A DNA stretch of 64,000 nucleotides from Rhizophagus irregularis. Lineage: Eukaryota. The stretch is from the NCBI RefSeq assembly GCF_026210795.1, contig NC_089432.1, forward strand, positions 3,844,001 through 3,908,000. The letters are read 5' to 3'. Below the pieces are notes generated by a model. It saw only the letters and a list, made by a program, of their open reading frames with translations. It did no database searches and had not been told where the DNA came from. This document shows, in pieces, positions 11,691 to 33,023 of the stretch (positions are counted from its first letter, which is position 1; each line of letters begins with the position of its first letter). The position numbers and the translations under genes are program-made.

Positions 11691-11903
11691 CCCACAATTT
11701 AATGATAATTTACTGAAAAATTTCTCAACATTTGAATTAGAAATTCTGTAAGAATTCCGCCATTTTGATAAAATTTGCCAAATTGTAAGTCTTCCATTAT
11801 CCCAAAATTGTAACACAATTTACTCCAATTTACTGGGATAATTCTCAATTTGCCAGAAAAATTCCAGGCAAATTTTGCGACAATGACATCTGTTCGACCT
11901 GTG

Positions 11904-14073
11904 GAAAGAAGAATAGAAGAAGGCCCAAGAGCTGACGATTTCATTTTTTTTGTAATACCTTGAGCTAATTCCCAATGATGAAAGAAAATGGAACGGCACA
12001 GCCAGATTTGGACATAAAGGTCAAAATGAAAGTCGTGCAAAGGTGTATCTAAGATAAACCATATGGTAAGTGAAGAAAAATAATTGCCAAAAAATTCTGT
12101 AATAAATATCGGTATAAGTCCTCGTGCGAGTCGCAGGCAGAAAATTGAAGGAGGGTCACAATTCCAACAATTAAGAGCCGTAAATTCAGCAGCAAAAGAG
12201 TCTGGTAAAGGTATTAGAAATGACGCGGAAAGAAAATTATCAAGATAATTAGTCTGAAGAGCCAATAGTAGTGTTTCAAAAGTATTTAAAGGGCTAAATT
12301 CCGGTAAGATATAAGGACAAGTCCACAAGTGGTCTAAAGTCTCAGGAGAAGAGTTACATTGAGAACAAAGCCAATTCGGATTATAAAAATAAGGCTTTCG
12401 TCTCTGAAGAGTTGTAAGCGTCGGAAGCATATCTAATAGTAGTTTGATACGGAAGCCACAAAACTCGGAATGACCATTCCAATGAGAGACGAATTGCTTA
12501 TTGTTATTGAGACAAAATTTGGTGCATGCCCAATCGGTATCAGAAGTTGAAGAATATGAATTAAATCTTGGTAATACAGCAAGAGTTAAAAGACTTTTAG
12601 CGTTAAAAATATTTCTAATAAATTTCCGGATATTCATATCCACAGGTAAGGAATTAAATTATAAAATGCAAGGAGCCAACAATTCCGATGATAGATGAGA
12701 AGAAAGATGTGAGTCGGTATGAGCGGCTTTGGCTAATGCATCCACATGATTATTCAAAGAGTCGTCAGCGTGAGCAGGAACCTTGATCAAGGAAACATCC
12801 AAATTCTTTTGCGACATAATAGTGCGTATGGAAAACCACAAAAGGTGGTTAAATTCTTTAAGCATTCTAGGAATAAAAGGAGCATCCACATACAAAGATC
12901 ATAAAGAAAGTAATTGGGCACAATCAGTAGCGACAGTAATCTTTGAATTCTGAGGGAGGGAGTCCAATCCGTGCAATAGAGCAAAAACTTCTGAACGTAA
13001 AGCAGAAGGAAAAATGAAAGAAATGATATTATAATGGGATTCCAAAATAAATCTATCAGGATCTATAGCGGTCCATGCATAAGTCATCGAAGATATCGGA
13101 TAACTAGAAGGAGGAAGGAAGGAACTATCAATATAAAGTGTAGACACTGAAGAAGGAAGTTATATATCAGAAATCCTAGACACTTGATTATTCATAGGAG
13201 GTAGTTGAACTGAAGCAAAAAGATAAAATAGTAAAAGAGATTTGGCAAAGCTTAACGAGGCAGAAAGCGAGACTAAGCAAGTATCTGCATGTATATAAGT
13301 ATGAGGTCTCGTAGGATAACGGATTAAACTAGATAACGGAACATAAGAAAAGCATCCTTCAGAGGGACATCGTTTAATCAAAGTTTTAGAGGTAGAGGAT
13401 CGCGGAATAGCAGAGATACAACCATGGCATGCAGTAAAATCAGAAAGCAAATCATCAACAGATGACGCAATCCAATGTGAAATAAGAGCTTCATTACGTG
13501 GAGCAGGATAGGTAGTAATCACACGGCCAACAAAAAAGAATTAGTATTACGATTAAAAGAAATAGCCCATTGAGGGTTAAACCAATAATTCTGACTAATA
13601 TCTATAAAAGAAATAGGGGCTACGGTATGAGAAACAGGAATTCTAAATTGTGATAAAATAAACAAAGAAGAAGAATTAGGAATAACAATAAGATTAAATA
13701 AATAATTAAACCAAGCAGGCACAGATCCTTTGTTTGATACTCGTTTAAGAAAGCGTAAATCTTTCCAAGAGAGAAGTCGAGAGCTACACGGTGTAATCAA
13801 TTGAGCAAGATAATGAGTGCAGAAATTCTTCTGAACATTTTTCATGGAAATAAATAAATCTCTTGGTAAAATAGACCGGAGTAGAATCGCCAGACGTAAA
13901 TCTTTCCTTAGAGGTCGGAACAATAAAGACCACGTGATATTTAATCGAGAAGAGAACAATAAAGAATTGAACAAAGAATGTGTTCGCAGGAAAAAGGTAT
14001 GGGACCATGGTTCCAGGTCAATAGTAGAAGGATAGGCATACATCACCGTCCAAAAAACTTTAGAGATAAGTAA
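11904..14073 (-). pseudogene. Non-LTR retrotransposon ORF2, C-terminal part: RNase H and CCHC zinc finger
   Basis: RNase H motifs LYIDSS, SALRSEVFALL, ATDCAQLL, KVPAHADDSLNNHVDALAK, then FRIKLLLDMLPTL...CSQC...ETLDHLWTC. Broken by stops and frameshifts, and cut at both sides by other elements. Confidence 0.85.
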
Positions 14074-14534
14074 GTCATCGGGCTGGTAGTGTGTCTCGCT
14101 AGCGCTCACCCCACCTCGGCCTCACGGTCTCGCAGTACTTACATCCTCCCTTCGTGGGGCGGGAATCCCCATATATGTGTCCCTATCTGTCCCCATATCT
14201 GTCCCATAAATATATAACCAAAAACCAGAAAACAATAGAAAAGGAAGCAAAAAAGAGAGAATAAGAGGGGAAGGACAGATGGGACAAATGGGACAGGCAT
14301 TTCAGAAATATAGGAAAGGACATCTCCCCAGAAAAAGTTTTATTTTTACCCCCCGAAATGCGTCCCATCAGTCCCGTCTGTCCCAAAAAATCTGTCCCAC
14401 ATTTCTTAGCCTCCAATTGGCTTTTCGAACTGATAACAGGTAGGTCAGCAGGTAGGTTTAAGTCCTCGGTTAGCGGGTTGATTACTTTATGTAAAGCGAA
14501 CGCAGTGAGCAAGTAAGCGGATAATCTGCACTTC

Positions 14535-15155
14535 GTCGTCGGGCTGGATGTGGGAGGTGCAAGTACCACCCACCTCTGGGTCTACGACCCGTCGCAGTAC
14601 CTATATGGCCCCTACGGGGCTCAGGAATCCTTATATATCTGCCACAATCTGGGACAATATCTGAAATAAATATATATACCAAATAACTAGAAAACAATAG
14701 AAAAGGAAGCAATAACGGATATAATGAGAGGGTTGTCCCGGATGTGGCAGATGTGGCAGATGTTTCAGAAAAATTATGAGAGGACATCCCCCCAGAAAAA
14801 GTTTTATTTTTACCCCCCCAGATCCGCCACATCCGGAACATCTGGAAAAAGTCAGGATTCCGTCTAATAATCTGTTGGAAGCAGTGAGATAGCAAACCAG
14901 GTAAGTTAGCAGGTAAGCCCCTAGAAGGTCTATAGAGCCAGTAAGGGCAGTGACATTTATTATGTAATATCTATTTACTATAAGCCCATACTCCCCCACC
15001 CCATGTAATATGAAAAATCTTACGTTACACTTATATGTTATATGACCTTTAAATACCCTCCCACCCCCTAAAATATTACGTAATAAATGTCACTGCCCTA
15101 AGACCAACCCCGTCCCACCCCCATCAGAAAAAATAAGTAATTGAACAATGGGTAT
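14535..15155 (+). repeat. Left TIR of element B (~464 bp after removing the MITE)
   Basis: Reverse complement of 28768-29230, differing mostly by transitions. Confidence 0.95.
14945..15098. mobile_element. PIF/Harbinger-type MITE (154 bp) in the left TIR
   Basis: TIR GGGCAGTGACATTTATTAYGTAATAT, TAA on both flanks; the right TIR preserves the empty site (CCAGTAAGACC). Confidence 0.92.
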
Positions 15156-15194: not shown

Positions 15195-15515
15195 CTAATC
15201 CGTCTTCCTCTTTTTTGCTTCCTTAAGGCATTTATCAATACACTGTTTACACGCATCATCAGAATCTAAGATTTTCTGTCCAAGTTTTTTGCATTGCCGA
15301 TTGTAAGCTGTCTGCTGTCTCTTAGCAGCGATTTCTTTCTTGTTCTCCTTAGTCTTCTTCTTGATCACCCAGTCTACTCCAGTAAAAGTATTCTTATGCA
15401 TACCACAAATTGTGCAGTCACCATGCAGCCGGTAACACCCATTTGTAGTCATATCTTGTATTTCACTAGCAGTCTCAGTTTCCTTCTTGCACTTTAGACA
15501 GTAAAATCGTGTCAT
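15195..15515 (-). CDS. Small Cys4 zinc-ribbon protein (DUF5679-like)
   Basis: YCLKCKKET...NG...GDCTICGMHKNTF pattern; intact 106-aa ORF divergent from the integrase. Confidence 0.65.
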   Translation of the reverse strand: MTRFYCLKCKKETETASEIQDMTTNGCYRLHGDCTICGMHKNTFTGVDWVIKKKTKENKKEIAAKRQQTAYNRQCKKLGQKILDSDDACKQCIDKCLKEAKKRKTD

Positions 15516-16676: not shown

Positions 16677-17420
16677 TTATTTTTTGTCTCCTCTATTCAC
16701 ATCAGGAACTATCGGAATAAAAACATTCTTCCCATCACAGGTAAAGGCTATATGTTCACGTGATTCATAGACATCATAATTGTAACGTTTCAGACACGTC
16801 CGGCTCAATCCAATTTCCCTATGCTTGTATCCATCTAAAACTGCAAGATCCTCAGTGATAGCATAATCAGGGGTAAGTTTGATTGACACTCCCTTTACCA
16901 TGCCGAATGTCCTACCTGTTCCTAGAGCACCAGATATGTTGTATGTAATACTCTTGTCGATATCCAACCCTAATTCCTCAGCAGCTTCTCTCTGAATAAA
17001 AGACGCATTAGCACAAGTGTCTGCTAAACACTGAATTGCTATCCCATTAACCTCTCCATCCAGTGCTAAAAGATCTTTAGTATTCTCCAAACGAGCTATA
17101 TCAATATCCATAGGATCGTATTCCCTGATATCCTCTTTTTGTTCCTCCTTAGCTAAGTCATCTGAAATCTCTGTGACTTTTCTAGCAGACATCATCTCCT
17201 CCTGAAGAATCTCACGGAGTAATTTCCTAAAGTCTGCAGACCTTAACAGGCTTAATAAGTCATTCTTAGTAACAGCTTTTGCAGGTATAGACTTACTACC
17301 AATAACTTTCACAGGAATCTTAACAGGGGTTGCTTTGCCTTTCAAGGGTACACTAGAAGAGCTAACTGCTGTCTTATTTGGGGACGACTTAAGAAGTTTT
17401 GAGATACTCGAACCTACTTT
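16677..17420 (-). CDS. Retropepsin-like aspartic protease in the -1 frame relative to gag
   Basis: YDPMDID, GEVNG..IQCLADTCANASFIQREAAEELGL, ISGALG, IGLSRTCL. The frame is open from the A9 run at 17418-17426 and has no in-frame ATG before the linker. Confidence 0.85.
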   Translation of the reverse strand, partial: KVGSSISKLLKSSPNKTAVSSSSVPLKGKATPVKIPVKVIGSKSIPAKAVTKNDLLSLLRSADFRKLLREILQEEMMSARKVTEISDDLAKEEQKEDIREYDPMDIDIARLENTKDLLALDGEVNGIAIQCLADTCANASFIQREAAEELGLDIDKSITYNISGALGTGRTFGMVKGVSIKLTPDYAITEDLAVLDGYKHREIGLSRTCLKRYNYDVYESREHIAFTCDGKNVFIPIVPDVNRGDKK

Positions 17421-18844
17421 TTTTTTGACCCAACATGAACCATATAGACATCACCATCTTTTTCTCTCAATTCTACCTTTTCACCAAAACTCACAGTATC
17501 AATGTCCATAGCATCATCATTAAGATCAAGGTTTCTCATTGCTCAGGCCAAATCCAGATCATCACGTCTATCTTTAGCCTTCTGAAGTTGATTTGTAAGT
17601 ATTTTAGACGTCCCACGTTTATATCCCATAATAAGATCAATAGCATTTTGATGATCATCCAAAGTCCACTCAGGAGCATCAGGGTCATCACCAACATCAG
17701 GTTCTACATAACTATCATCTTAATCAGGATCCTGATGATCCTGAATAACACATCTCTGTAGTTTTGGTCGAACAGGTTTAATCTGCTATCTATAGACTGG
17801 TGGATTACGAACTGGCCGAGCCTGTAATTGTTTAAATTGCACCTGAAAATTCTTGGTAAGTTCTTCAGCCTGAGCCTTAAGCAACTCTTGTAATTGTTCT
17901 TGAGTAACCCCAGACGACTTTGATGTCAGTACGACAGGTTCCTGTTTTCCTAATGTAGGTTGAGTTATATCACTGTAATCTGCTCGAAGTCGCCGATTTC
18001 TATCTTGTAACTCCAAGCGCATTTCAGCCCTTCTCCGTTCTAAATTTCTCAGATGTTTAACCAAGTCATCAGGATTAAGATTGTAAAACCTTTCTGCTTC
18101 AAAAATATTATCAGCTGAAAGACCTCTAAAGAACTGGTCGATAATAAGATCATCAGTTAGTCTTAGTAATTTTCCAGCCCTCTTTACAGTTCTATAAAAT
18201 GCATCAACTGGCTCATTTTCCTGGCAAAGACTGTTAAAATGGATACGTTTCTTTTCATCTAAAACAGTTGGAAATTGTGTTCTAAGCCAATAAAGCGCCT
18301 GATTAGGTTTAATACCTGGAAAAACTATAGGATGATTATTATTAACAGCAACACCAGCATCTGCAGTAGCTGGAGCAGCTCTATCTGTAGGACGAGCACC
18401 AGCTCTTTTCCAAGCTTCATCTCCACCCATTAAATCATGAGTAGGAATAAATGCTGCTCTAATAGTTACTAATGCATTAACTGGATATCTTGAATAGATT
18501 TGTGCTTCAGACCCATTTACATAGGTACCTACATTCGGTCCTCCTGCACCTTCTGGTATTACTAATGCTACAAAAGCAGCTAAATTAGCTTCACCAGCTG
18601 AAGTGATACCAGAAAGTTTCCAATTTTTTCCTGTAATTTCTCGATCAAACCATTCAGCTGCTTCACCGGCCATGCAGCTTCTAAGTATACCCATAGCTCT
18701 TTTCCAAGACTCTGGTGACCCTCCAGCAGCATATGGGTTAAGATTAATAGTATCAAGATAACCCATATAAAGCCTAACAAATGTATCAATATCATCAGTA
18801 GCTTTACCCTCAAAAATCGGCAATCCTATCGCAGTGGTAGCCAT
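17414..18844 (-). pseudogene. Ty3/gypsy-like Gag (capsid) protein; tail has three C>T-type stops
   Basis: LPIFEGKATDDIDTF..., LRSCMAGEAAEWF, YWLRTQF, FNSLCQENEPVDAFY (major-homology-region-like) and IIDQFFRGLS. The frame continues through TAG/TAA/TGA to ...AMDID...VGSKKK* at 17414. Confidence 0.82.
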
Positions 18845-19623
18845 ATCGTCTCTAGTGGATTGTTTAAAAGAGGTGGAGGAGGGTTCAATTGTCTAATTCG
18901 AAACCATTGTACCTGAATTCTAAGAGCAGCTATCTGTTGGAAAAGTCTATTCCTAAGTCTCCCTAATGTCTGAATCCCAAAACGCACCCTATTATTAGCA
19001 TGTGCTAGCTATGCATTAACCTGTACAAGTTGCGCATTAGCCAATACAAGTTGTCCTCCAGTCCGAGTAGCCCTCAGCCGCCAATGATTTAGAAGGATAT
19101 TACCACGATTCACAGCATTTTGAGCCTCATTACGATCCATTACTGCTTGAGTATAATCTGCTTGTAATACATTACGTTCATGTCGTGCCTGATTACGTTC
19201 ACCTATAGCCTGTCGACGAAGCTCTACCATAGTATCATAATCTCTTTGCAGGTTATAGTTTTCTTCTATGAAATTATCATTGGCAGCACGTATAATAACT
19301 AATTGACGTTCTAAATTAGTAAACGTTTCATCAAATGCATTTATCTTACCTTGTGCAAAAACTAACAAATCTTTTGTAATACCAAGTTCTTCATGTTTTG
19401 CTTTACAGCAATACATTAATATATTAATAATATGTTTGATTTGATTATTTGCCTCCTGTATCTCTGAATCAACAGTTAAACGACCCCTAGTAGTCAATAA
19501 ATTTGCATGAGCCTTTAGTATTCTAACTAATTCATCATCGTCTTCTTCATTGGCCAAATGTGCAGAAAGCGGTCCAGTAGGTTCTGAAGGAGTATAAACT
19601 GGAATTGGTGTTGATGTCGACAT
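18845..19623 (-). pseudogene. Coiled-coil protein, possibly the frameshifted N-terminal part of Gag
   Basis: Heptad-like ERNQARHERN region. Reads through one TAG (19009) into ...RQLNPPPPLLNNP and overlaps the gag ATG one base out of frame. Confidence 0.55.
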
Positions 19624-19654: not shown

Positions 19655-20878
19655 ATGGATCTTTATGTATACAATTTGGACGAGTACACGACTGACTCAA
19701 GACAAGGCAATGAGTTTGCTCCATCATGGCCCTTTCGATTAGCCGTAGCAGGTAGCTCAGACTCAGGTAAGACAACTATGATCATTAACTTGTTAATGGG
19801 TGACAAGAAGGCAAAGGAGGATGGTAATCGGTATATACTATGTGATGCAGTACTTTTAGTTGGCAGATATCTTGATGAGCTGAAGTGGGCAGTTGTACAT
19901 GATTTTTTCGAAGAGGAGAAGATCCCATTCACTGCAGTAACCCATAGTGAGATTCCAGAGATTGACTCCTTCGACCCTACTCAAGCTACTGTGGTAATCT
20001 TCAAGGATTTGATGGATGCACCTAAAAAAATCCAGGATCTCATCACTGGTTACTTTACACATGGACGACACAAAAATATTTCATATATTTATGTAGCCCA
20101 AAAATTCTTTGCCATTCCTAAGGCTATTCGAGAAAATGTTAACTACATCTCACTGCATGGAGGTCATGGGAGCCTTACAGATACTAAGAGAATCATTTGC
20201 CTATATACAGAAGAATCAGAGTCATTAGCACCAGTAATTGATGATCTTACTTTGCAACGTGAATTTGTAGTGTTTGATCTTAGATGGTCTAAAAGTGATC
20301 CACTGTCCATTCGAGTAAGATGAGATACTAGTCTCAGTTCGATCACAAAGCAATCTCAGTTCAATCCTAGTTCAATCTCAGTTCAATCTCAGTTTAATCC
20401 AAATTTGAACCCAGTTCGATCTCAGTCTGAACCCAGTTCAATCACAGTTCGATTTAAGTTTAGTCCCTATGGTCAGAAAGCTGTATCTGAAGCAAAAAAA
20501 GGTGGACACTTGATTGAATTTGCTTGGGTATTTCCATCCCCTAAAGAGCGTCAACATTTACTTGTACTTGGTGTCTTAGCTAAGAATACAGATACCTGGA
20601 TTAAATTTGTCTTTCGGGAAGCTTATGGACTCTCTGGTAAGACCCTAGGAGCTGACTTTCAGGACTTCTTAGCAAAAGTACAGGGTAGGATTGCAAAGAC
20701 TGAAACTCTGAAAACTGAGAATGTGAAGGAGTTATTCTCCCAATATGAAGCCCTGAAGTCTAGTCGCCCTCTGGATAATAAAAAAATAATAGAAGGTATT
20801 GAAGTCCTTTTACAGATCTTTTCTAAGAGCCACATGGACCGTCGAGCATTACAAGTAGGGATTAATAGTATCTTGTGA
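19655..20878 (+). pseudogene. A32/FtsK-HerA-like (genome-packaging type) ATPase with one premature TGA
   Basis: Walker A LAVAGSSDSGKT, Walker B VVIF(K)DL, FTHGRHKNISYIYVAQ...IPKAIREN. ORFs 19655-20323 and 20405-20878 are in the same frame, separated only by a TGA. Confidence 0.85.
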
Positions 20879-23645: not shown

Positions 23646-25525
23646 TCATGTCCAGATAACCTTGTTTGCATTTTTCACATGGCAGTATCCTGCGGTTTCA
23701 AACTTGAGAGCTTTCAATGCTTTGGATGCATTTTCTGGACAAGTGATAAGTGTAGGACTACTCAGCTGTTCCTCTAGAATAAATCCATCTGTATGGATAC
23801 GTCGTACTTTATCCTTATATAGTTCTAATAACTCTGAAGTCATCTTCCGTCCATGTGTTAATAAGAATGGAGCAATCCTAGGATACTCACCCTTGAAGGG
23901 ACTACCTGGGTTTGTGAATTGGAATCGCCACTGGTCAGATCCTACTGGTATGATGGAGTCAAGTGTGTGGCCTTCTGGAAACTTGAATGGATCTGTTTGA
24001 TCTGTGGTGAGTGTCTTGTAATTGCATTTCCTCTGGTAGAGTGCTCCCCATAATGTATTGAGAACTCTCTTTGCAACACGACCGGCCACGCCACCCTGGT
24101 TCTTTATATTGAAGAAAAAGTGAACATACTCACCAAATATTACAGTCCCAGGAATTCTTGCTTCTCTGTCATATATCAAGGCATTTGGCTTTCCATCCTG
24201 GATTAACTGTATATCAAGACCAAGTTTCTTTGCTCGTTGTAAGTCAATGAATGTATAGACTCCCCTCTTATTCTGTCGGAAGAGAATGTCATTACCACTT
24301 ACCTTGCCCTTGGGCGCTCCCTGAGAGCTAGCACGAAATAATCCATACAAGGCATAACCTCTGTGGTCTACAAAGTCTTTGAGTATTTGAAACTTACCTT
24401 GTTGGATTGGAAAGTTAGCATTTGATTGCTGAATACTTGGATACAAACTTGTCACGTCGTATTGTCTTCCATAGCCCTTCCATTCATTATCTGCCCAGAT
24501 AAGACCTCCCATCATTGCATCACTTATCCACTCTGCTTCGACTGGATCAAGAGGATCATTAGCTGGAACTTCTACACTAAACCGTTCAAAAAGCCAGAGA
24601 GCAGTTCTCTTGTACGACCAGTTGTGGTAAGATAAGTCGATTCCTAGACCGAACTTCTTTGTAGCCTGTAGAAAGGAATCCCACTCTTCATGAATCCTCT
24701 GGTATGTTTCCTCAAGTGTTTCATATATTCCAGTTTTACGATTCTTCTCAATAGGGATGAAGGAGTAACTATCAGAGTTCTTACCTTTCTGAAACTGTCC
24801 AACTGTAAGAGACTTAACTGTCTTACCATTGTATATTGTTACTACATTATTAACCCCATCTTCACGATAAACAAAGGGAGACTTTTGTTTTCTATCTAAT
24901 TTACTAGGGTGAAGTCTTCCAGGATTCAGTGCAAGAGAGTAGTGGCCTTCAGACAGGATGAAGGTTGCACGTCTGTCAGATTTGCTCTTGGAAATTCGAG
25001 TGGAATCCCTACAATATTAAGTGCAAGACTTTCTGCAAGTTGTTCAACCTTATCCATATATGAGACTGGAACTGGAGCATCACGATTGAGACCTAATGCC
25101 TTTTTGATATATTCAGGCTTTTTTATAGTCTCGGGTATTTTAGAGAATATACCATAGATATGCTTCAGGCATTCATACAGGCAATCATTTAGCTCCCCAT
25201 TGCATCCCCCTGCAACCAGTGGAGCATCTCTCACATAAATTATGAATCGTTCAAAGTAATCAGGATCTGCATCATCTGGTAGTTGTGCTTCATCATAGTG
25301 GTCCAAGAGTGAGAAGAGGCTGGCTGGTTGGTTTCCTGATGTCCATCCACCGAGTTTCCAGTTTTCATAGGGAAGTAGGATCTGGAACTTTCTATCTGGA
25401 AATCGCGCCTGGAGAGTCTGACCGAGTCTGGCGATAGCTCCTCTGGAAAAGCGGGCACTGGAATACTGAAGTTCCTTGATGTCAGGTCGTGTTGGTAAAG
25501 TGCGGGCGATTCTTGAGTATTGCAT
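23646..25525 (-). pseudogene. Compact family-B DNA polymerase (protein-primed-like), frameshifted
   Basis: MMGG, motif A RQYDVTSLYPS, motif B KRVLNTLWGAL, motif C variant RIHTDGF. The N-terminal piece (24926-25525, with NDCLYECL) is joined via frameshifts. Confidence 0.85.
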
Positions 25526-25609: not shown

Positions 25610-28159
25610 TTACAATATGTCATTGATAGCGCCCTCAGTATCCTTTTCATTCCAGTCATCGATGATTCCATTGGCGGCCTCCCATTCATGTTCCATATCA
25701 GTTTTTGGACGTTCCTCTGGGATTTCTCGTGCCTTACCTTTATTTATCTTCATAGTTTCATAACCAGAGGTAGTAGGGATAATCTCAGCATCACGATCCT
25801 CCTTGTATACTCTTATTAGATTTGCGAGTTCTTTACGGCTAGGTGTTTTAGGTGAGTTCCCATTATATTCGATCCAGTCCTTGAAGCGGTCTACTACTTC
25901 CCTAAGGTAGTACTGGTACTCGTCCTCAATACGTGTTGTGGGACATTCCTCTACTTCAAACACGAGTATTTTCCAGTCATACTCGTCTGACACGTCTTGG
26001 TACTTAGCCCATAAATCCTTACCTGTATTGTAGAGATCATTGAAGACCTGGTCCTTTGAATTCTTGACCCATGGCTTACGATCCCATCAGTGTCTTTCAT
26101 GCCAAGCCCAGTGTGCTTGAGTACCTTCCTTTGGTTCAGGGTCCCGGTCAACTTCTAGTTCTGTATCGAGTTCTGGGATAGGTTGCTCTTCAGGAGCTGG
26201 TTCTGAATCAGGCTTAGTGACAGATGCAGAAGATTCTGCGGGAGACTCGGATTGTTGTTCAGGAGCTGGGTTCACAGTTGTAAAATCTGAGTCAGATAGC
26301 AAGTCATCTAAAACGTCGTAGTCATCATCAGCTTTAAATGCAGGTTTCTCAGCAGACAGCTCATTTTCTTGATCAGGTTCCTCATCAGATAGATAACAGT
26401 CCGAGAAGCTATCTATAGGTTCATTAGTATCTGACTCTATAGGAGCTGGAGATTCCTCAGGAATAGGATCCTCATTGATGACAGGTGCGGGTTTTGCCTT
26501 CAAGCAATCGGGCTTAAGTGGTACTGGTGGTGAAGTCTTTTTGGAAACTGGTTTCTCTTCAGTAGGCTTCTTCTCGACAGGAGCGGGTTTTTCCTCAGCA
26601 GGTTTCTCAACAACTGGCTCCACTTCCTCTTGATCTACTTGCGATTTACTAGCTGGATTATATATATTTGCCAAGAACTTTACCAAGGCATTTGGATCAG
26701 ATGCGGGCTTCTCAGGAGTTTCTACATTTATTCCTTTTATATTGATTTCATCTGTTTCGTGGATCCATTTTTTGGTGAGAAACTTCTTGTAAAGGTCCTC
26801 CCTGGATATGCTATAAACTCGTGGTGTTGCCTTACCTACACGTATTTTTCTGCTATTTATACCCAACTCATTTGATAGGATTCTAGAAGCGTTTATCTTT
26901 GATAGGGGTGTAATGCAATGAGTTTCACAGTATGAAGTATATACCCTATAAAATTCTTAAACAGGTAGATCGGTTATATGATTTTTTACTATGAGGTAAG
27001 TGTCCTTTATGAATTGAAATAGGGGTGGAAGAGTCGATATGATGTGATCCTGCTTAGATGTTGTCATAGGTGGTGGATTCCCATTGAAGTCTGGATAAGC
27101 ATCTGCAATGGCTCTCAAGTAAGCATAGAATGCCTCACTGGCGCCTGGGTATTTCATAGCGTTACTGAGTTTCTTAAAGTAGTTGAGGTCTCCCTTGCGG
27201 GATGGTGATACATCCAAGAACACTGTGCACCTATCGTCATTCTCCACTCTGAGAGCATTTTCATTAGTGAATACAATGGTGGATATAAAGTTTTTGTAAT
27301 GTGTTGGCATCTTGTATTTTTCATGGATTTCCATTATGTCACCTGTTACCTTATCCTTCAACGATCAATACAGATTATTCCACTGGCTTTTTTCTGTAGG
27401 CATTTCCTCGAGGAGGAGAAGAACCTTACCTTGTAATTGCCCATTAAAACTTCCAAGAATCGTTTGAGGATCGCTGGTCTTATAAACAAGTTGAGTACCT
27501 AAGACACTACGTTGAATGAAATCTGTTATAATACTCTTACCCCAACCCTGTCCAGATTTCAGGTAGAGAATACATTTTCCTTCCAGCTGCCACACCGGCC
27601 AACCACTTTATGATATACTCAGTAAGATTCCAATCGCCTGAACACCAGATATCCTGAATGTGAAAGAAGATAAATTTAACCGCGAGGTGGGTTGTAGATT
27701 CAAAGTGGATATCGAACGCAGGATATGGAGGAATCCTGGAAAGATATTGAGATAAAGTTGGCCACCTAGTTTAAAGATACGGGATTTTTGAGGGTCACAG
27801 GTAGCTACACATACAGTACTATATTCGATCATAAACCATTTGTTGATATTAAATTCAACCTTTTGTGAAGGACCCTGTTCAGATTGTGTGTAAAAGACTT
27901 TGGTAATTGGACGGATAAGTTTATTAATATTTTTATCAGGGATGTGCTCAAGGTTTTTGATTTCTGATCGCCACATGAAGACTCCATGCGGGTTGGAACA
28001 GGGGATAAAGTAACTGCAAAGATAACCTTTAGCTTGATTGAGATCCCTCATATTCTTTGCAGCGTTAATGAGCCGTTTAAGCTCATCAATACTAAAAGCC
28101 TTCTTTTGTTCACCGAACTTGGAGATAACTTGAGCTTGAGTGCTAGTTTGGGCAGTCAT
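25610..28159 (-). pseudogene. D5-like superfamily 3 helicase with Pro/Glu-rich tail, fragmented
   Basis: Walker A LKSGQGWGKS, FNGQLQGKVLLLLEE (Walker B), IVFTNENALRVENDDR (motif C and Arg finger); five ORF pieces in register. Confidence 0.88.
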
Positions 28160-28378
28160 TTTTTGTTCTATCAAATCGAGTACTAATTTATAGTTACCTA
28201 ATCTTCAATTGCCGAATATTTTTTCCAAAGATCTGCACTCCTACCAGGTTACCCTCCTGTAGTCCTATGGTCCTGCGATTCTGCGGTCCTCCGGTTATAT
28301 CTGGTTATCTTCTAGGGGTAAAAAAAAACTATAAACCACGAACCTTTACGACTGCTCTAAATCTTCCCTTCCCCTTTT

Positions 28379-28767: not shown

Positions 28768-29230
28768 ATACCCATTGTTCAATTACTTATTTTTTCTGAT
28801 GGGGGTGGGATGGGGTTGGTCTTACTGGCTCTATAGTCCTTCTAGGGGCTTACCTGCTAACTTACCTGGTTTGCTATCTCACTGCTCCTAACAGGTTATT
28901 AGACGGAATCCTGACTTGTTCCAGATGTTCCGGATGTGGCGGATCTGGGGGGTAAAAATAAAACTTTTTCTGGGGGGATGTCCTCTCATAATTTTTCTGA
29001 AACATCTGCCACATCTGCCACATCTGGGACAACCCTCTCATTATATCCGTTATTGCTTCCTTTTCTATTGTTTTCTAGTTATTTGGTATATATATTTGTT
29101 CCAGATGTTGTCCCAGATTGTGGCGGATATATGGGGATTCCTGAGCCCCGTAGGGGCCATATAGGTACTGCGACGGGTCGTAGACCCGGAGGTGGGTGGT
29201 GCTTGCACCTTCCACATCCAGCCTGACAAT
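28768..29230 (-). repeat. Right TIR of element B (463 bp)
   Basis: Ends in CCAGCCTGACAAT versus the expected CCAGCCCGACGAC (three transitions), followed by the TSD ACTTC. Confidence 0.95.
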
Positions 29231-29414
29231 ACTTCTAATATACTCAGGTAAACATATTACTCTGACACGCAAGTATGATTCTGATGACTAATCCCGTCCC
29301 ACCCCTAGAAGATAATTAGGTAGGACCGAAGGAGCACGGATCTTTGGAAAAATATATTCGGCAATTGAAGTTTAGGTAACTATAAATTAGATCCCGATTC
29401 AACAGAATGAAAAA

Positions 29415-31835
29415 ATGACCACTCAAGCTCAAGTTATCCCCAAATTCGGTGAACAAACGAAAGCCTTCAGTATTGATGAGCTTAAATGGCTTATTGTTGC
29501 TGCTAAGAGTATGAGTGACCTCGATCAAGCCAAGAGGTATCTTTGCAGTTATTTCATTCCCTATGCAGATCCTCATGGAGTTTTCTGGTGGGACCTGGAT
29601 AGTAAAAGTTTGAAACACATTATTGACAAAAATATTGGTAAACTTATCCGTCCAATCACGAAGGCATTCTACACACAACCTGAACAAGGACCCTCTTAAA
29701 AGACCGAGTTCAACATCTACAAGTGGTTTATGGTCGAGAATACTGATGTATGTAATGCAACCTGTGATCCTCATAAACAGCGAATCTTCAGATCCTTAAC
29801 TGGCCAACTCTATCTAAATATCTTCCTGGGATTCCTTCACGTCTTGCATCTGATATCCACCTTTGAGTCTACAATTCACCTCGCGGTTAAATTTATCTTC
29901 TCTCACATTCAGGATATCTGGTGTTCGGGTGATTGGAATCTCACTGAGTATATCATCAAGTGGTTGGCCGGTGTATCTGCTGGAAGGAAGATGTACTCGA
30001 TTCTCTACCTAAAATCTGGACAGGGTTGGGGCAAAGGTATTATAATAGATTTCATTTAGCGCAGCGTCCTAGGCACTCAACTTGTTTATAAGACCAGCGA
30101 TCCTCAGACGATTCTTGGAAGTTTTAATGGGCAATTACAGGGTAAGGTCCTTCTTCTTCTCGAGGAAATGCCCACAGAAAAAAGCCAGTGGAATAATCTG
30201 TATCGCTTTTTGAAGGATAAAGTAACGAGTAACATAATGGAAATCCATGAAAAATACAAGACGCCAACACATTACAAGAACTTTATGTTCACCATCGTCC
30301 TAACCAACGAAAATGCTCTCAGAGTGGAGAATGACGATAGGCACACAGTGTTCTTAGATGTGTCACCATCCCGCAAGGGAGACCTCAACTACTTCAAAAA
30401 ACTCAGTGACGCTATGAAATACCCAGGCGCCAGTGAGGCATTCTATGCTTACTTGAGAGCCATCGCAGACACTTACCTAGACTTCAATGGGAATCTGCCA
30501 CCCATGACAACATCCAAACAGGAACATATCATCTCAACTCTTCCACCGCTATTCCAATTTATAAAGGACACATACCTCGTAATGAAAAATTATATGACCG
30601 ACCTACCTGTTCAAGAATTTTATAGGGTATATACTTCATATTGCGAAACTCATTGCATTTCACCCCTATCAAAGATAAATGCTTCTAGAATCCTATCAAA
30701 TGAGTTAAATATAAATAGTGATCAAATGTATATTGATAAGAAGCACACTCAAGTTTACAGCATATCCAGGGAGGACCTCTACAAGAAATTCCTCAGCAAA
30801 AACTGGATCCACAAAACAGACGAGATAGACATAGAAGGAATAGATGTAGATACTCCCGAGAAGCCCGCATTAGACCCCAATGCCTTGGATAAGTTCTTGG
30901 CAAATATATATAATCCAGCTAACAATTCACAAGATGTACAAGAAAAACCTGCTGAGAAAAAACTCGCTAAGAAAAAACCCGTACCTGTCAAGGAAAAACC
31001 CGCACCTGTAATTCGCAAGATGCCTCCACCGCTTTCACCCAAGCCTGATCACTTAAAAGAACGTCCACAAGAGTTAAGGGAAGAAAAACCGTCTGCCCCC
31101 GAGCCAGATAACTATGACGTCTTAGATGACTTGTTATCAGACTTAGATTCTACAACCGTGGACCCAGTTCTTGAGCAACAACCCGCAGAATCTTCCACAA
31201 AATCCGAATCCCTTGCAGATTCTAAATTTTCTACAGAACCTGTAGTAGTACTGGCTCCCAAAGAGCAACTTATTCCAGAACCTGACACAGAACCAGAAGT
31301 CGACCGGGATCCTGAACTAAAGGAAGGTACTCGAGCACACTGGACTTGGCAAAAAAGGCACCGATGGGATCGCAAGCCGTGGGTTAAAAATTCAAAGGAC
31401 CAGGCCTTCGATGATCTCTAAAATACAGGTAAGGAATTATGGGCCAAGTACCAAGACGCGTCAGATGAATACGACTGGAAAATACTTGCGTTTGAAGTAG
31501 AGGAATGTCCTACAACGCGTATTGAGGACAAGTACCAGTACTACCTTAGGGAAGTAGTAGACTGCTTTAAGGATTGGATTGAATATAATGGATACTTATC
31601 TAAAACACCTAGCCGTAAAGAATTCGCGGATTTAATAAGATAATCGTAATGCCAAGATTATCCCCACCCCCTTTGGTTATGAAACTATGAGGGCAGATAA
31701 AGGTAAAGCGCGAGAGATCCCAAAGAACGTCTAAAAACTGATATGGAACGCCAGTGGGAAGCCGCCAATGGAATCATCGATGACTGGGATGAAGAGAATC
31801 TTGATCGTGTATGCAGCAAGATTGACTCCTTTTAA
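29415..31835 (+). pseudogene. D5-like SF3 helicase of element A
   Basis: Close paralogue of 25610-28159 (LKSGQGWGKG, MPTEKSQWNNLY, TNENALRVENDDR), with in-frame stops. Confidence 0.88.
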
Positions 31836-31918
31836 TAAGATAAGCACTTCTTAGTTATCTTATATTTTTTGTATAAAAAACCTATATTACAACTGAACAC
31901 AATTCATAAATACATTAA

Positions 31919-32208
31919 ATGGTTTATTCAGAGATTGTCCGTGCTTTACCTATAAGACTGGATATCAAAGAATTACAGTATTCAGGCGCAAGATTTTCTA
32001 GAGGATCAATAGTAAGACTTGGACAGCGACTCCAATCCCGGTATTCGACACATAAATTCCAGATCCTGCTTCCCTATGAAAACTGGAAACCCAGTGGATG
32101 GACATCAGAAAATGAACCGGTAAGTCTCTTTTCACTGTTAGACCATTATGATGAAGCACAACTACCGGACGACGCAGACCCCGATTATTTCGAACGATTT
32201 ATAATTTA
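31919..32208 (+). pseudogene. 5' fragment of the PolB gene of element A
   Basis: Matches the N-terminus of 24926-25525 up to YFERFIIY, then switches to unrelated AT-rich DNA. Confidence 0.85.
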
Positions 32209-33023
32209 CTTTGCTGAAACTTGGAGTTTACAATCGATATTGATTAGATATTGCAATGATATTATTACGATATCATTATGATATTTTGATAAAAAATAGA
32301 TTCGACGTCATTAAGTTAGTCGTAACTGTATTTAATCGACATCGATTAGTTCGATATCTCTGCGATATCACTGCGATCATTATGCGATGTAAATATTATC
32401 ACGTAACCACATCGTAGTGATGTCATATTAACATTGAATTAATATTACAAAATATTTGACATTTTATTTGATATCGTAACCACATCGTAGTGATATCATA
32501 TTAACATCAAATTAATATTGCAAAATATTTGACATTTTATTTGATATCGTAACCACATTGTAGCCATATCGTAGTGATATCATATTAACATTGAATTAAT
32601 ATTGCAAAAATATTAAAAATATTTTACATCTATTTGATATCATAGCCACATCGTAGTGATGTCGTATTAACATTGAATTAATATTACAATTTTATTTGAT
32701 ATCGTAACTACATCATAATAATATCATATTAATATCGAATTAATATTACAAAAAATGTTTTACATTTATTTAATATCGTAACTACATCGTAATGATATTA
32801 TATTAATACTGAATTAACATCACAAAAATATTTTTATTGTAATATATGTTTATTATTTATTATACATTAATAATAATAATTTTTTATTAGTGGATTATTA
32901 TGGGTGAGTGGAGTACGTTTCTTTTCTTCCTTTTTTTTTTATTCTTTTCTTCTCTTTTTTATTCTTTTCTTCTCGTATGTGAGTGGATGGATACGTCATT
33001 TTCAATTTTAAAATATATATATA

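Follow-up and report, generated by a model that had tools for sequence, protein, structure and literature searches.

A conserved run of nine A's at the gag-protease junction of a Maverick-like element from Rhizophagus irregularis as a candidate -1 recoding site

Introduction

MMTV and HTLV are viruses with gag-pro sites of the A_AAA_AAC type. This class of heptamer is described at retroviral gag-pro sites in the available text of PMC5009743, in which A_AAA_AAG is given as the shifty form in E. coli. Eukaryotic heptamers rarely have G as their last base Z, and frameshifting above 1% almost always requires a stimulator, according to the accessible part of PMC7618472. Ribosomes are also described as sliding on iterated AAA (PMC4363877).

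Mavericks have expanded in the Glomerales (PMC11952901), and recently so in R. irregularis (PMC8647823); the available text of these two papers mentions neither gag nor frameshifting in the elements. A Polinton-like 'related element' labelled Matrix/Capsid/NC/Pro appears alongside MELD in the legend to Figure 5 of Starrett et al. (2021; PMC8502044). The accessible text of that paper contains no mention of a gag-pro frameshift, and one of its supplementary files contains no Rhizophagus, Gag, retropepsin or Glomus. For adintovirus, -1 frameshifts have been predicted computationally for Penton and Hexon-Adenain (PMC11071296).

Here we analyse a window of 64,000 nucleotides from R. irregularis (contig NC_089432.1, positions 3,844,001 to 3,908,000), in which a preliminary description made from the letters had proposed a retroviral-style -1 frameshift signal linking gag to a protease within a DNA element. 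All positions given below are those of the window. Gag and protease genes in a Polinton-like element are already known from the 2021 legend, and Figure 5 and the supplements of PMC8502044 may already show the element itself. Of the gag-pro junction with its nine A's (A9) we found no description in the literature searched, and it is absent from the available text of PMC5751038 and 10.1101/2025.06.16.659975.

Results

The Carrier Is a Maverick-Like DNA Element

The window was compared with four related DNA loci, three from a metagenome scan (L001-L003) and one from a genome scan (L004), all of which contain the junction. In the window, the gag-protease pair belongs to an element of about 14.7 kb that is bounded by paired terminal inverted repeats (TIRs; left 14538..15155, right 28768..29227; arms of 281 nt at 96%, 157 nt at 91% and 57 nt at 98%). 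Pfam searches identified a DUF5679 protein (15195..15515, minus strand), with a similar small ORF in the same place in L004 as judged by eye, and an rve integrase with a C-terminal chromodomain (PF00665, PF00385; 15560..16651, plus strand), which is convergent with gag-pro and arranged in the same way in L004. The ORF upstream of gag (18820..19623, minus strand) is coiled-coil-like by eye, has no Pfam match, contains an in-frame stop at 19009-19011 and overlaps the gag start with its 3' end. Further genes encode an A32-type DNA packaging ATPase (19655..20323, plus strand; Pox_A32, PF04665, E 1.4e-09) and a protein-primed-type DNA polymerase B (pPolB; 23646..25525, minus strand; DNA_pol_B_2, PF03175, E 3e-07, above cut-off), which falls into two frames in the window copy. 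A D5-like/DUF5906 helicase-primase region assigned by Pfam is interrupted by stops (25610..28204, minus strand).

The TIRs, pPolB, chromo-integrase and A32 ATPase around gag-pro agree with the earlier placement of this module in a DNA element. No reverse transcriptase or RNase H lies behind the protease in the window, L001 or L004; pro stops at 16677 and the convergent integrase comes next. Likewise, no LTRs were found flanking gag-pro, there being no long direct repeat among the 20 largest repeat families listed. Both features belong to the layout of a Ty3/gypsy LTR retrotransposon. Mavericks/Polintons have a 6-bp target-site duplication; none was found at the ends of this element, the copy being decayed and having partial related sequence on both sides. 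A jelly-roll capsid and an adenain-type protease gave no Pfam match among 23 ORFs, and no unassigned stretch between the TIRs is long enough for them. An Atlas search with one small ORF of the element gave no lead, and other Atlas searches returned only leads below 0.9.

Several features were seen in passing in and around the element. Just outside the right TIR (29300-32281), the D5-like and PolB 5' region recurs in part, inverted and 76-91% similar, and a partial TIR-like copy is found at 14130-14380. The 3' end of the ATPase gene (20313-20465) holds ten copies of an 11-nt repeat, and its frame runs for 184 codons past an in-frame TGA. ORF fragments on the minus strand at 11699-14121 resemble, by eye, the end of a non-LTR retrotransposon and have no Pfam match. 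Finally, the overlap between the ORF upstream of gag and the gag start (18820-18892) is in the -1 phase and holds a T_TTA_AAC in the window; we make no claim for this heptamer, as L003 keeps the overlap without it.

A Run of Nine A's Directly Precedes the gag Stop

The minus strand reads GGG TCA AAA AAA AAG TAG with the gag stop at 17416-17414, in agreement with the preliminary description. The nine A's occupy 17426-17418 (T9 on the plus strand, 17418-17426) and form part of the candidate shift site NNA AAA AAA AAG TAG (17414..17428, minus strand), a pattern found in the window letters and in L001-L004. Read one base back, the minus strand gives GTC AAA AAA AAA GTA GGT. As had been described, this -1 frame is open up to the protease stop; it extends over 257 codons, from 17450 to 16677-16679, and encodes a retropepsin.

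A zero-frame X_XXY_YYZ heptamer is present in 5/5 loci, and two such heptamers overlap at the site, A_AAA_AAA (17426-17420) and A_AAA_AAG (17423-17417), again both in 5/5 loci. The latter breaks the rule that Z is not G, whereas the former obeys it. The preliminary description was right that A_AAA_AAG stands before the gag stop, but the unit that is kept is the whole A9G run, which also contains A_AAA_AAA. Were A_AAA_AAG alone the signal, neither the additional AAA codon nor the A in front of it, both kept here, would be needed; the A9G run is thus what is selected. The site is more than a chance occurrence, because only 5 A/T runs of at least 8 exist in the 14.7-kb element and because the same letters and phase recur in 4/4 related loci.

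The Window Copy Is Dead, and Its Gag Belongs to a Predicted Capsid Family

By the ORF map, gag (17414..18844, minus strand) has 476 codons; a CA-type capsid fold is predicted from the intact homologue P0106. The preliminary description had missed that gag is not open up to the shift site in the window copy, in which three in-frame stops interrupt it at codons 353 (17788-17786), 375 (17722-17720) and 434 (17545-17543). In run X2, contigs with a sense codon at 17788 account for 266,655 out of a summed depth of 268,196, other contigs have sense codons at 17720-17721, and homologues are likewise sense at the positions of the gag lesions. Because other copies carry sense codons there, the stops are lesions of the window copy. 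With three stops between the gag ATG (18844) and the shift site, this copy cannot use the site, and the window copy of the element is dead.

The predicted fold of P0106 matches retroviral/PEG10 CA, and the Gag profile matches PEG10 CA-CTD (E 0.0028). In a structure comparison with VIA-align, the top 29 rows are all retroviral, Arc, PNMA or copia capsids (best Z 9.2, rmsd 3.2, 81 aligned), and Retrotrans_gag is detected in 6 of 15 Gag family members. Foldseek alone gave no match below E 0.001 (best E 7.8e-03). By prediction, Gag is a true CA-fold protein. No NC-type zinc knuckle was seen in the window Gag family. The nearest named proteins are from R. irregularis itself, with identities of up to 95% for the protease and 100% for a Gag fragment.

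We also observed a distant sister Gag family (P0372, P0383, P0387, P0391, P0392, P0438) that has a CCHC zinc knuckle, several of its members carrying an in-frame N-terminal coiled-coil-like region. P0372 and P0391 have a fused DTGS protease, a layout closer to Matrix/Capsid/NC/Pro.

Letters and Phase of the Junction Are Kept in Related Loci

The preliminary description named the same letters and the same -1 phase in other copies as a check, and both are there: NNA AAA AAA AAG TAR with pro in the -1 frame occurs in 4/4 related loci (5/5 counting the window), including L004, in which the protease is only 39% identical. Gene order in L004 is gag, pro, convergent chromo-integrase and small ORF, as in the window, and in L003 gag is fully open. 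At the DNA level, L004 is the only clear case of an independent lineage; L001 and L002 are partly independent and L003 belongs to the window's own subfamily. The L004 contig is filed in an archaeal genome bin, probably through mis-binning, and no second Gag contig was found in the genome behind it. Over 110 codons (81 for L003), the -1 frame contains 0 stops and the other two frames 6-16 at all five junctions. The codon before the lysines varies (TCA, GCA, ACA, TCA and CGA, for Ser, Ala, Thr, Ser and Arg) with a constant final A, and the stop is TAG or TAA. Given xKKK and a Lys codon usage of AAA 95 and AAG 72, the chance of the junction codon pattern is about 0.046 per independent lineage.

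Because letters and -1 phase are kept in 4/4 loci, including the one at 39% with the same gene order, the gag-pro pair represents a stable module of this DNA element rather than debris. The earlier view of a module thus holds for the family, but not for the window copy, which is dead.

At the protein level, 37 of 150 representative proteins match a Gag profile built without the K-run. Their C-termini comprise 13 ending in KKK*, 3 in QKKR* and 6 in KK plus 1-4 residues, along with 7 long fused models and 8 other or partial ends. The 8 full-length Gags with KKK* or QKKR* are 27-55% identical to each other. Across the family, the gag stop thus usually stands, with exceptions, directly behind the K-run. 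The long Gag-Pro proteins are all NCBI models, and among the 120 listed of 145 a single one (P0279) has an unbroken in-frame junction; the other 119 skip the junction, with many different boundaries. In a set of 60 non-NCBI proteins, which is biased toward altered copies and in which several junction-crossers come from a cluster rich in truncated members, 11 cross the junction, of which 6 agree with -1, 2 (P0099, P0304) are fused in frame and 3 imply another phase (P0009, P0054, P0069). The -1 phase is therefore not universal in the available sequences, a minority of copies being in frame or otherwise shifted. Viral contigs searched with the protease, a protease alignment, a Gag alignment, a sister-family alignment and the junction pattern gave no match.

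The length of the homopolymer, which the preliminary description had wanted checked, is the same in contigs of independent runs: X1#3, X4#16, X16#4, X18#10 and X19#14 cross the nine A's with 0 gaps. The share of summed contig depth with losses at the A run is 0% for X1 and X4 and 0.5% for X2; in X5, 1-nt losses reach 4.6% and 2-nt losses a further 5.0%. Summed depths are not copy numbers, and rare variants are dropped from contigs. No run-length changes are listed for the X16, X18 and X19 run set. The A9 length is not an assembly error.

These data largely refute the idea of a gag-pro that was once in frame and owes its offset to a mutation during decay or to an error of assembly; we regard it as very improbable. 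The window copy is decayed, and copies with gag and pro in one frame, which the preliminary description had named as the finding that would speak against it, do exist as a minority (P0279, P0304, P0099 and the 2-nt loss in X5). However, run length and phase are the same in short-read contigs of several studies, and -1 is kept in 4/4 related loci, among them L003 with its open gag and the distant L004.

The Linker Ahead of the Protease Appears to Be Translated from Upstream

The pro ORF in the -1 frame (16677..17450, minus strand) encodes a low-complexity linker, predicted helices, a PMDID motif and a Ddi1-like retropepsin with D-T-C-A. It matches the aspartic protease family PF13650 (E 8.4e-08), and the predicted protease fold matches the Ddi1 RVP (retropepsin) domain (E 2.2e-08). 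DTCA/DSCA takes the place of D-T/S-G-A as active-site motif in 96 of 104 protease hits. The canonical Gly is absent from the predicted protease, and its activity is uncertain. Within the protease family (window 16677-17110), we noted that the active site reads D-T/S-C-A and the second motif G-L-S, both canonical glycines having been replaced.

Differences in the linker at codon positions 1/2/3 number 4/7/21 against L003, 14/8/28 against L001 and 19/15/30 against L002, a third-position bias that marks the -1 frame of the linker as coding. The linker helices are predicted with a pLDDT of about 80-88, and their sequence is recognisable across the family. At the five junctions the first Met of the linker is at codon 77, 88, 25, none in 81, and 73, with no shared ATG ahead of the helices. 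Taking third-position bias, predicted helices and the lack of a shared ATG together, the linker must, from its sequence, be translated from upstream. An MD(I/T)Dxx(V/A)R motif occurs twice, 24-36 residues before the Gag end and again just before the protease, which suggests paired polyprotein cleavage sites.

A 1.4-kb contig in X18 and X19 (depth 111-117, about 10x other pieces) matches only 17374-17413 of the window and then continues in other sequence. It represents a well-covered locus elsewhere, with a protease-linker piece but no A run.

The protease might instead be made separately, from an internal start (the PMDID Met or a near-cognate codon) or from a transcript of its own, with KKK as a basic tail of Gag. 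A conserved Met 28-30 residues before the catalytic Asp would give a complete 141-aa protease (P0076, P0079), the window has an ATG at 17195, and the KKK at the end of Gag could have been retained for its basic charge as a tail, which counts against a frameshift. We nevertheless consider separate production improbable: it leaves unexplained both the fixed codons with their fixed -1 phase and the 70-100 stop-free, third-position-biased codons upstream of the PMDID Met. We do not regard the ATG at 17195 as a conserved start, since it is replaced in 44,131 of 66,231 contig depth in X2 and in all of X4. The preliminary description had stated that no ATG occurs before the linker; the one at 17195 does precede the whole protease domain, but it is not conserved.

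No Downstream Stem-Loop and No Sense-Strand Splice Joint Were Found

A stem-loop in the 100 nt downstream of the site, which the preliminary description had proposed to check for, was not found in any of the five loci: with a folding tool that has no pseudoknot model, folding was no better than in shuffles (z -0.86 to +1.27; window z +0.4 to +2.0). The sequence behind the gag stop shows little conservation, and L001 and L002 have a 12-nt insertion immediately 3' of the stop. Classical eukaryotic -1 signals carry a 3' stem-loop 5-9 nt behind the site. Because none was found, this is not the classical retroviral design. What remains of the proposed retroviral style is a -1 protease frame behind an A-rich site, but A_AAA_AAG is a bacterial-type heptamer. 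For the 100 nt upstream of the site, folding was slightly better than in shuffles (z -1.69).

Contigs of spliced RNA in this region run antisense to gag-pro (GT..AG on the plus strand); they occur in X18 and X19, which come from different studies with different organism labels. The window version of this RNA has no long ORF (68 aa at most), and the RNA may arise by read-through of the convergent integrase gene or be related to silencing. Antisense introns with strong donors were noted at 16941-17063, 17595-17664 and 17856-17937 (window 16900-18100, plus strand). The junction lies outside the coverage of X20, the sole run recorded as RNA.

Splicing could join gag and pro in the way that NCBI gene models do, as 119 of the 120 listed long proteins (145 found) skip the junction and an 89-nt GT..AG candidate lies at 17476-17388. 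Model boundaries, however, differ widely among the NCBI proteins, and no sense splice joint (CT..AC on the plus strand) appears in 8 runs, although antisense introns were detected in two of these. We judge splicing to be highly improbable. We do not count the 89-nt model intron among the features of the family, as its donor and acceptor are both absent from L001, L002 and L004.

The main rival explanation is transcriptional slippage, in which RNA polymerase II would add one A or drop two on T9 and so bring gag and pro into one frame in some mRNAs. It would fit the exactly nine A's in 5/5 loci as well as the absent 3' fold, since it requires no RNA structure, and its S-K-K-K-V junction would be identical to that of the -1 shift product. 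Runs of 9 A/T slip efficiently with bacterial polymerase (PMC5009743), but it is to the bacterial enzyme that this support refers. Moreover, slippage by the polymerase alone does not require the single codon phase directly before the stop that is seen in 5/5 loci. X18 and X19 contigs, from runs with splicing, span A9 with 0 gaps, although rare variants are dropped from contigs and at least one of these contigs is antisense. On balance, transcriptional slippage seems to us unlikely, if less so than separate production of the protease.

Discussion

Our analysis makes it probable that recoding of some form, ribosomal or transcriptional, takes place at the junction. Within this, we lean with moderate confidence towards the A9 run as a conserved site at which ribosomes of intact copies slip by -1 into the protease frame. 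On this ribosomal reading, a minority of ribosomes on intact copies would slip back one base at A9 and read on into pro, and the output would be mostly Gag (about 476 aa) with little Gag-protease (about 722 aa). The slip would most likely occur at A_AAA_AAA, where two lysyl-tRNAs could re-pair perfectly on A's, and a second chance could come from A_AAA_AAG together with slow reading of the three lysine codons and the stop codon. A folded 3' stimulator would not be needed, and efficiency would probably be low. The fusion would then likely free the protease at the MD(I/T)Dxx(V/A)R motif.

Our findings show that the gag-protease pair of these fungal Mavericks is of long standing and has been maintained as a unit of expression, which favours the view that a DNA-replicating element makes a working Gag particle. 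With A9G and a stop but no folded stimulator, the signal is unusually minimal and could serve as a test case for productive ribosome sliding versus polymerase slippage on short A runs in a eukaryote. More than 100 gene models annotated in Rhizophagus as 'Gag-Pro' bridge this junction by an intron and are probably wrong there. A wider scenario is tentative, and we would call it possible rather than probable: a Maverick lineage may have given up the jelly-roll capsid and cysteine protease, taken on a retroelement Gag shell and an aspartic protease in their place, kept the DNA packaging ATPase, and come to pack DNA in a Gag particle, setting the Gag:protease ratio by a structure-free recoding signal (nine A's and a stop) for which we found no eukaryotic example in the literature searched.

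The junction shares with retroviral gag-pro sites an A-rich heptamer at the gag end, a protease in the -1 frame and an expected minor Gag-Pro fusion. It differs from them in the A9G run followed at once by the stop, in having no stem-loop and no RT downstream, and in its carrier, a DNA element that encodes pPolB. The same letters occur at bacterial A_AAA_AAG sites (E. coli dnaX, IS elements) and in the A9/T9 transcriptional slippage of T. thermophilus dnaX, and both mechanisms are known on such runs (PMC5009743); here, in contrast, the host is eukaryotic, and G at the last heptamer position is disfavoured (PMC7618472).

With the Mavericks/Polintons described in the Glomerales, the element has in common TIRs, pPolB, a chromodomain integrase, an A32 ATPase and a length of about 15 kb (PMC11952901, PMC8647823), but it carries Gag and a retropepsin, and the jelly-roll capsid and adenain-type protease were not found. 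The element related to MELD is likewise a PolB element with Gag- and retropepsin-like genes, in a paper that includes Rhizophagus PolB sequences (PMC8502044). Going by the legend, that element would carry an NC label, whereas the window Gag family has no NC zinc knuckle and the sister family has one. Adintovirus provides a precedent for a proposed capsid-protease fusion by a -1 shift in a Polinton-like virus (PMC11071296). There, the partners are a jelly-roll capsid and a cysteine protease, whereas here they are Gag and an aspartic protease, with a junction site that is conserved across lineages.
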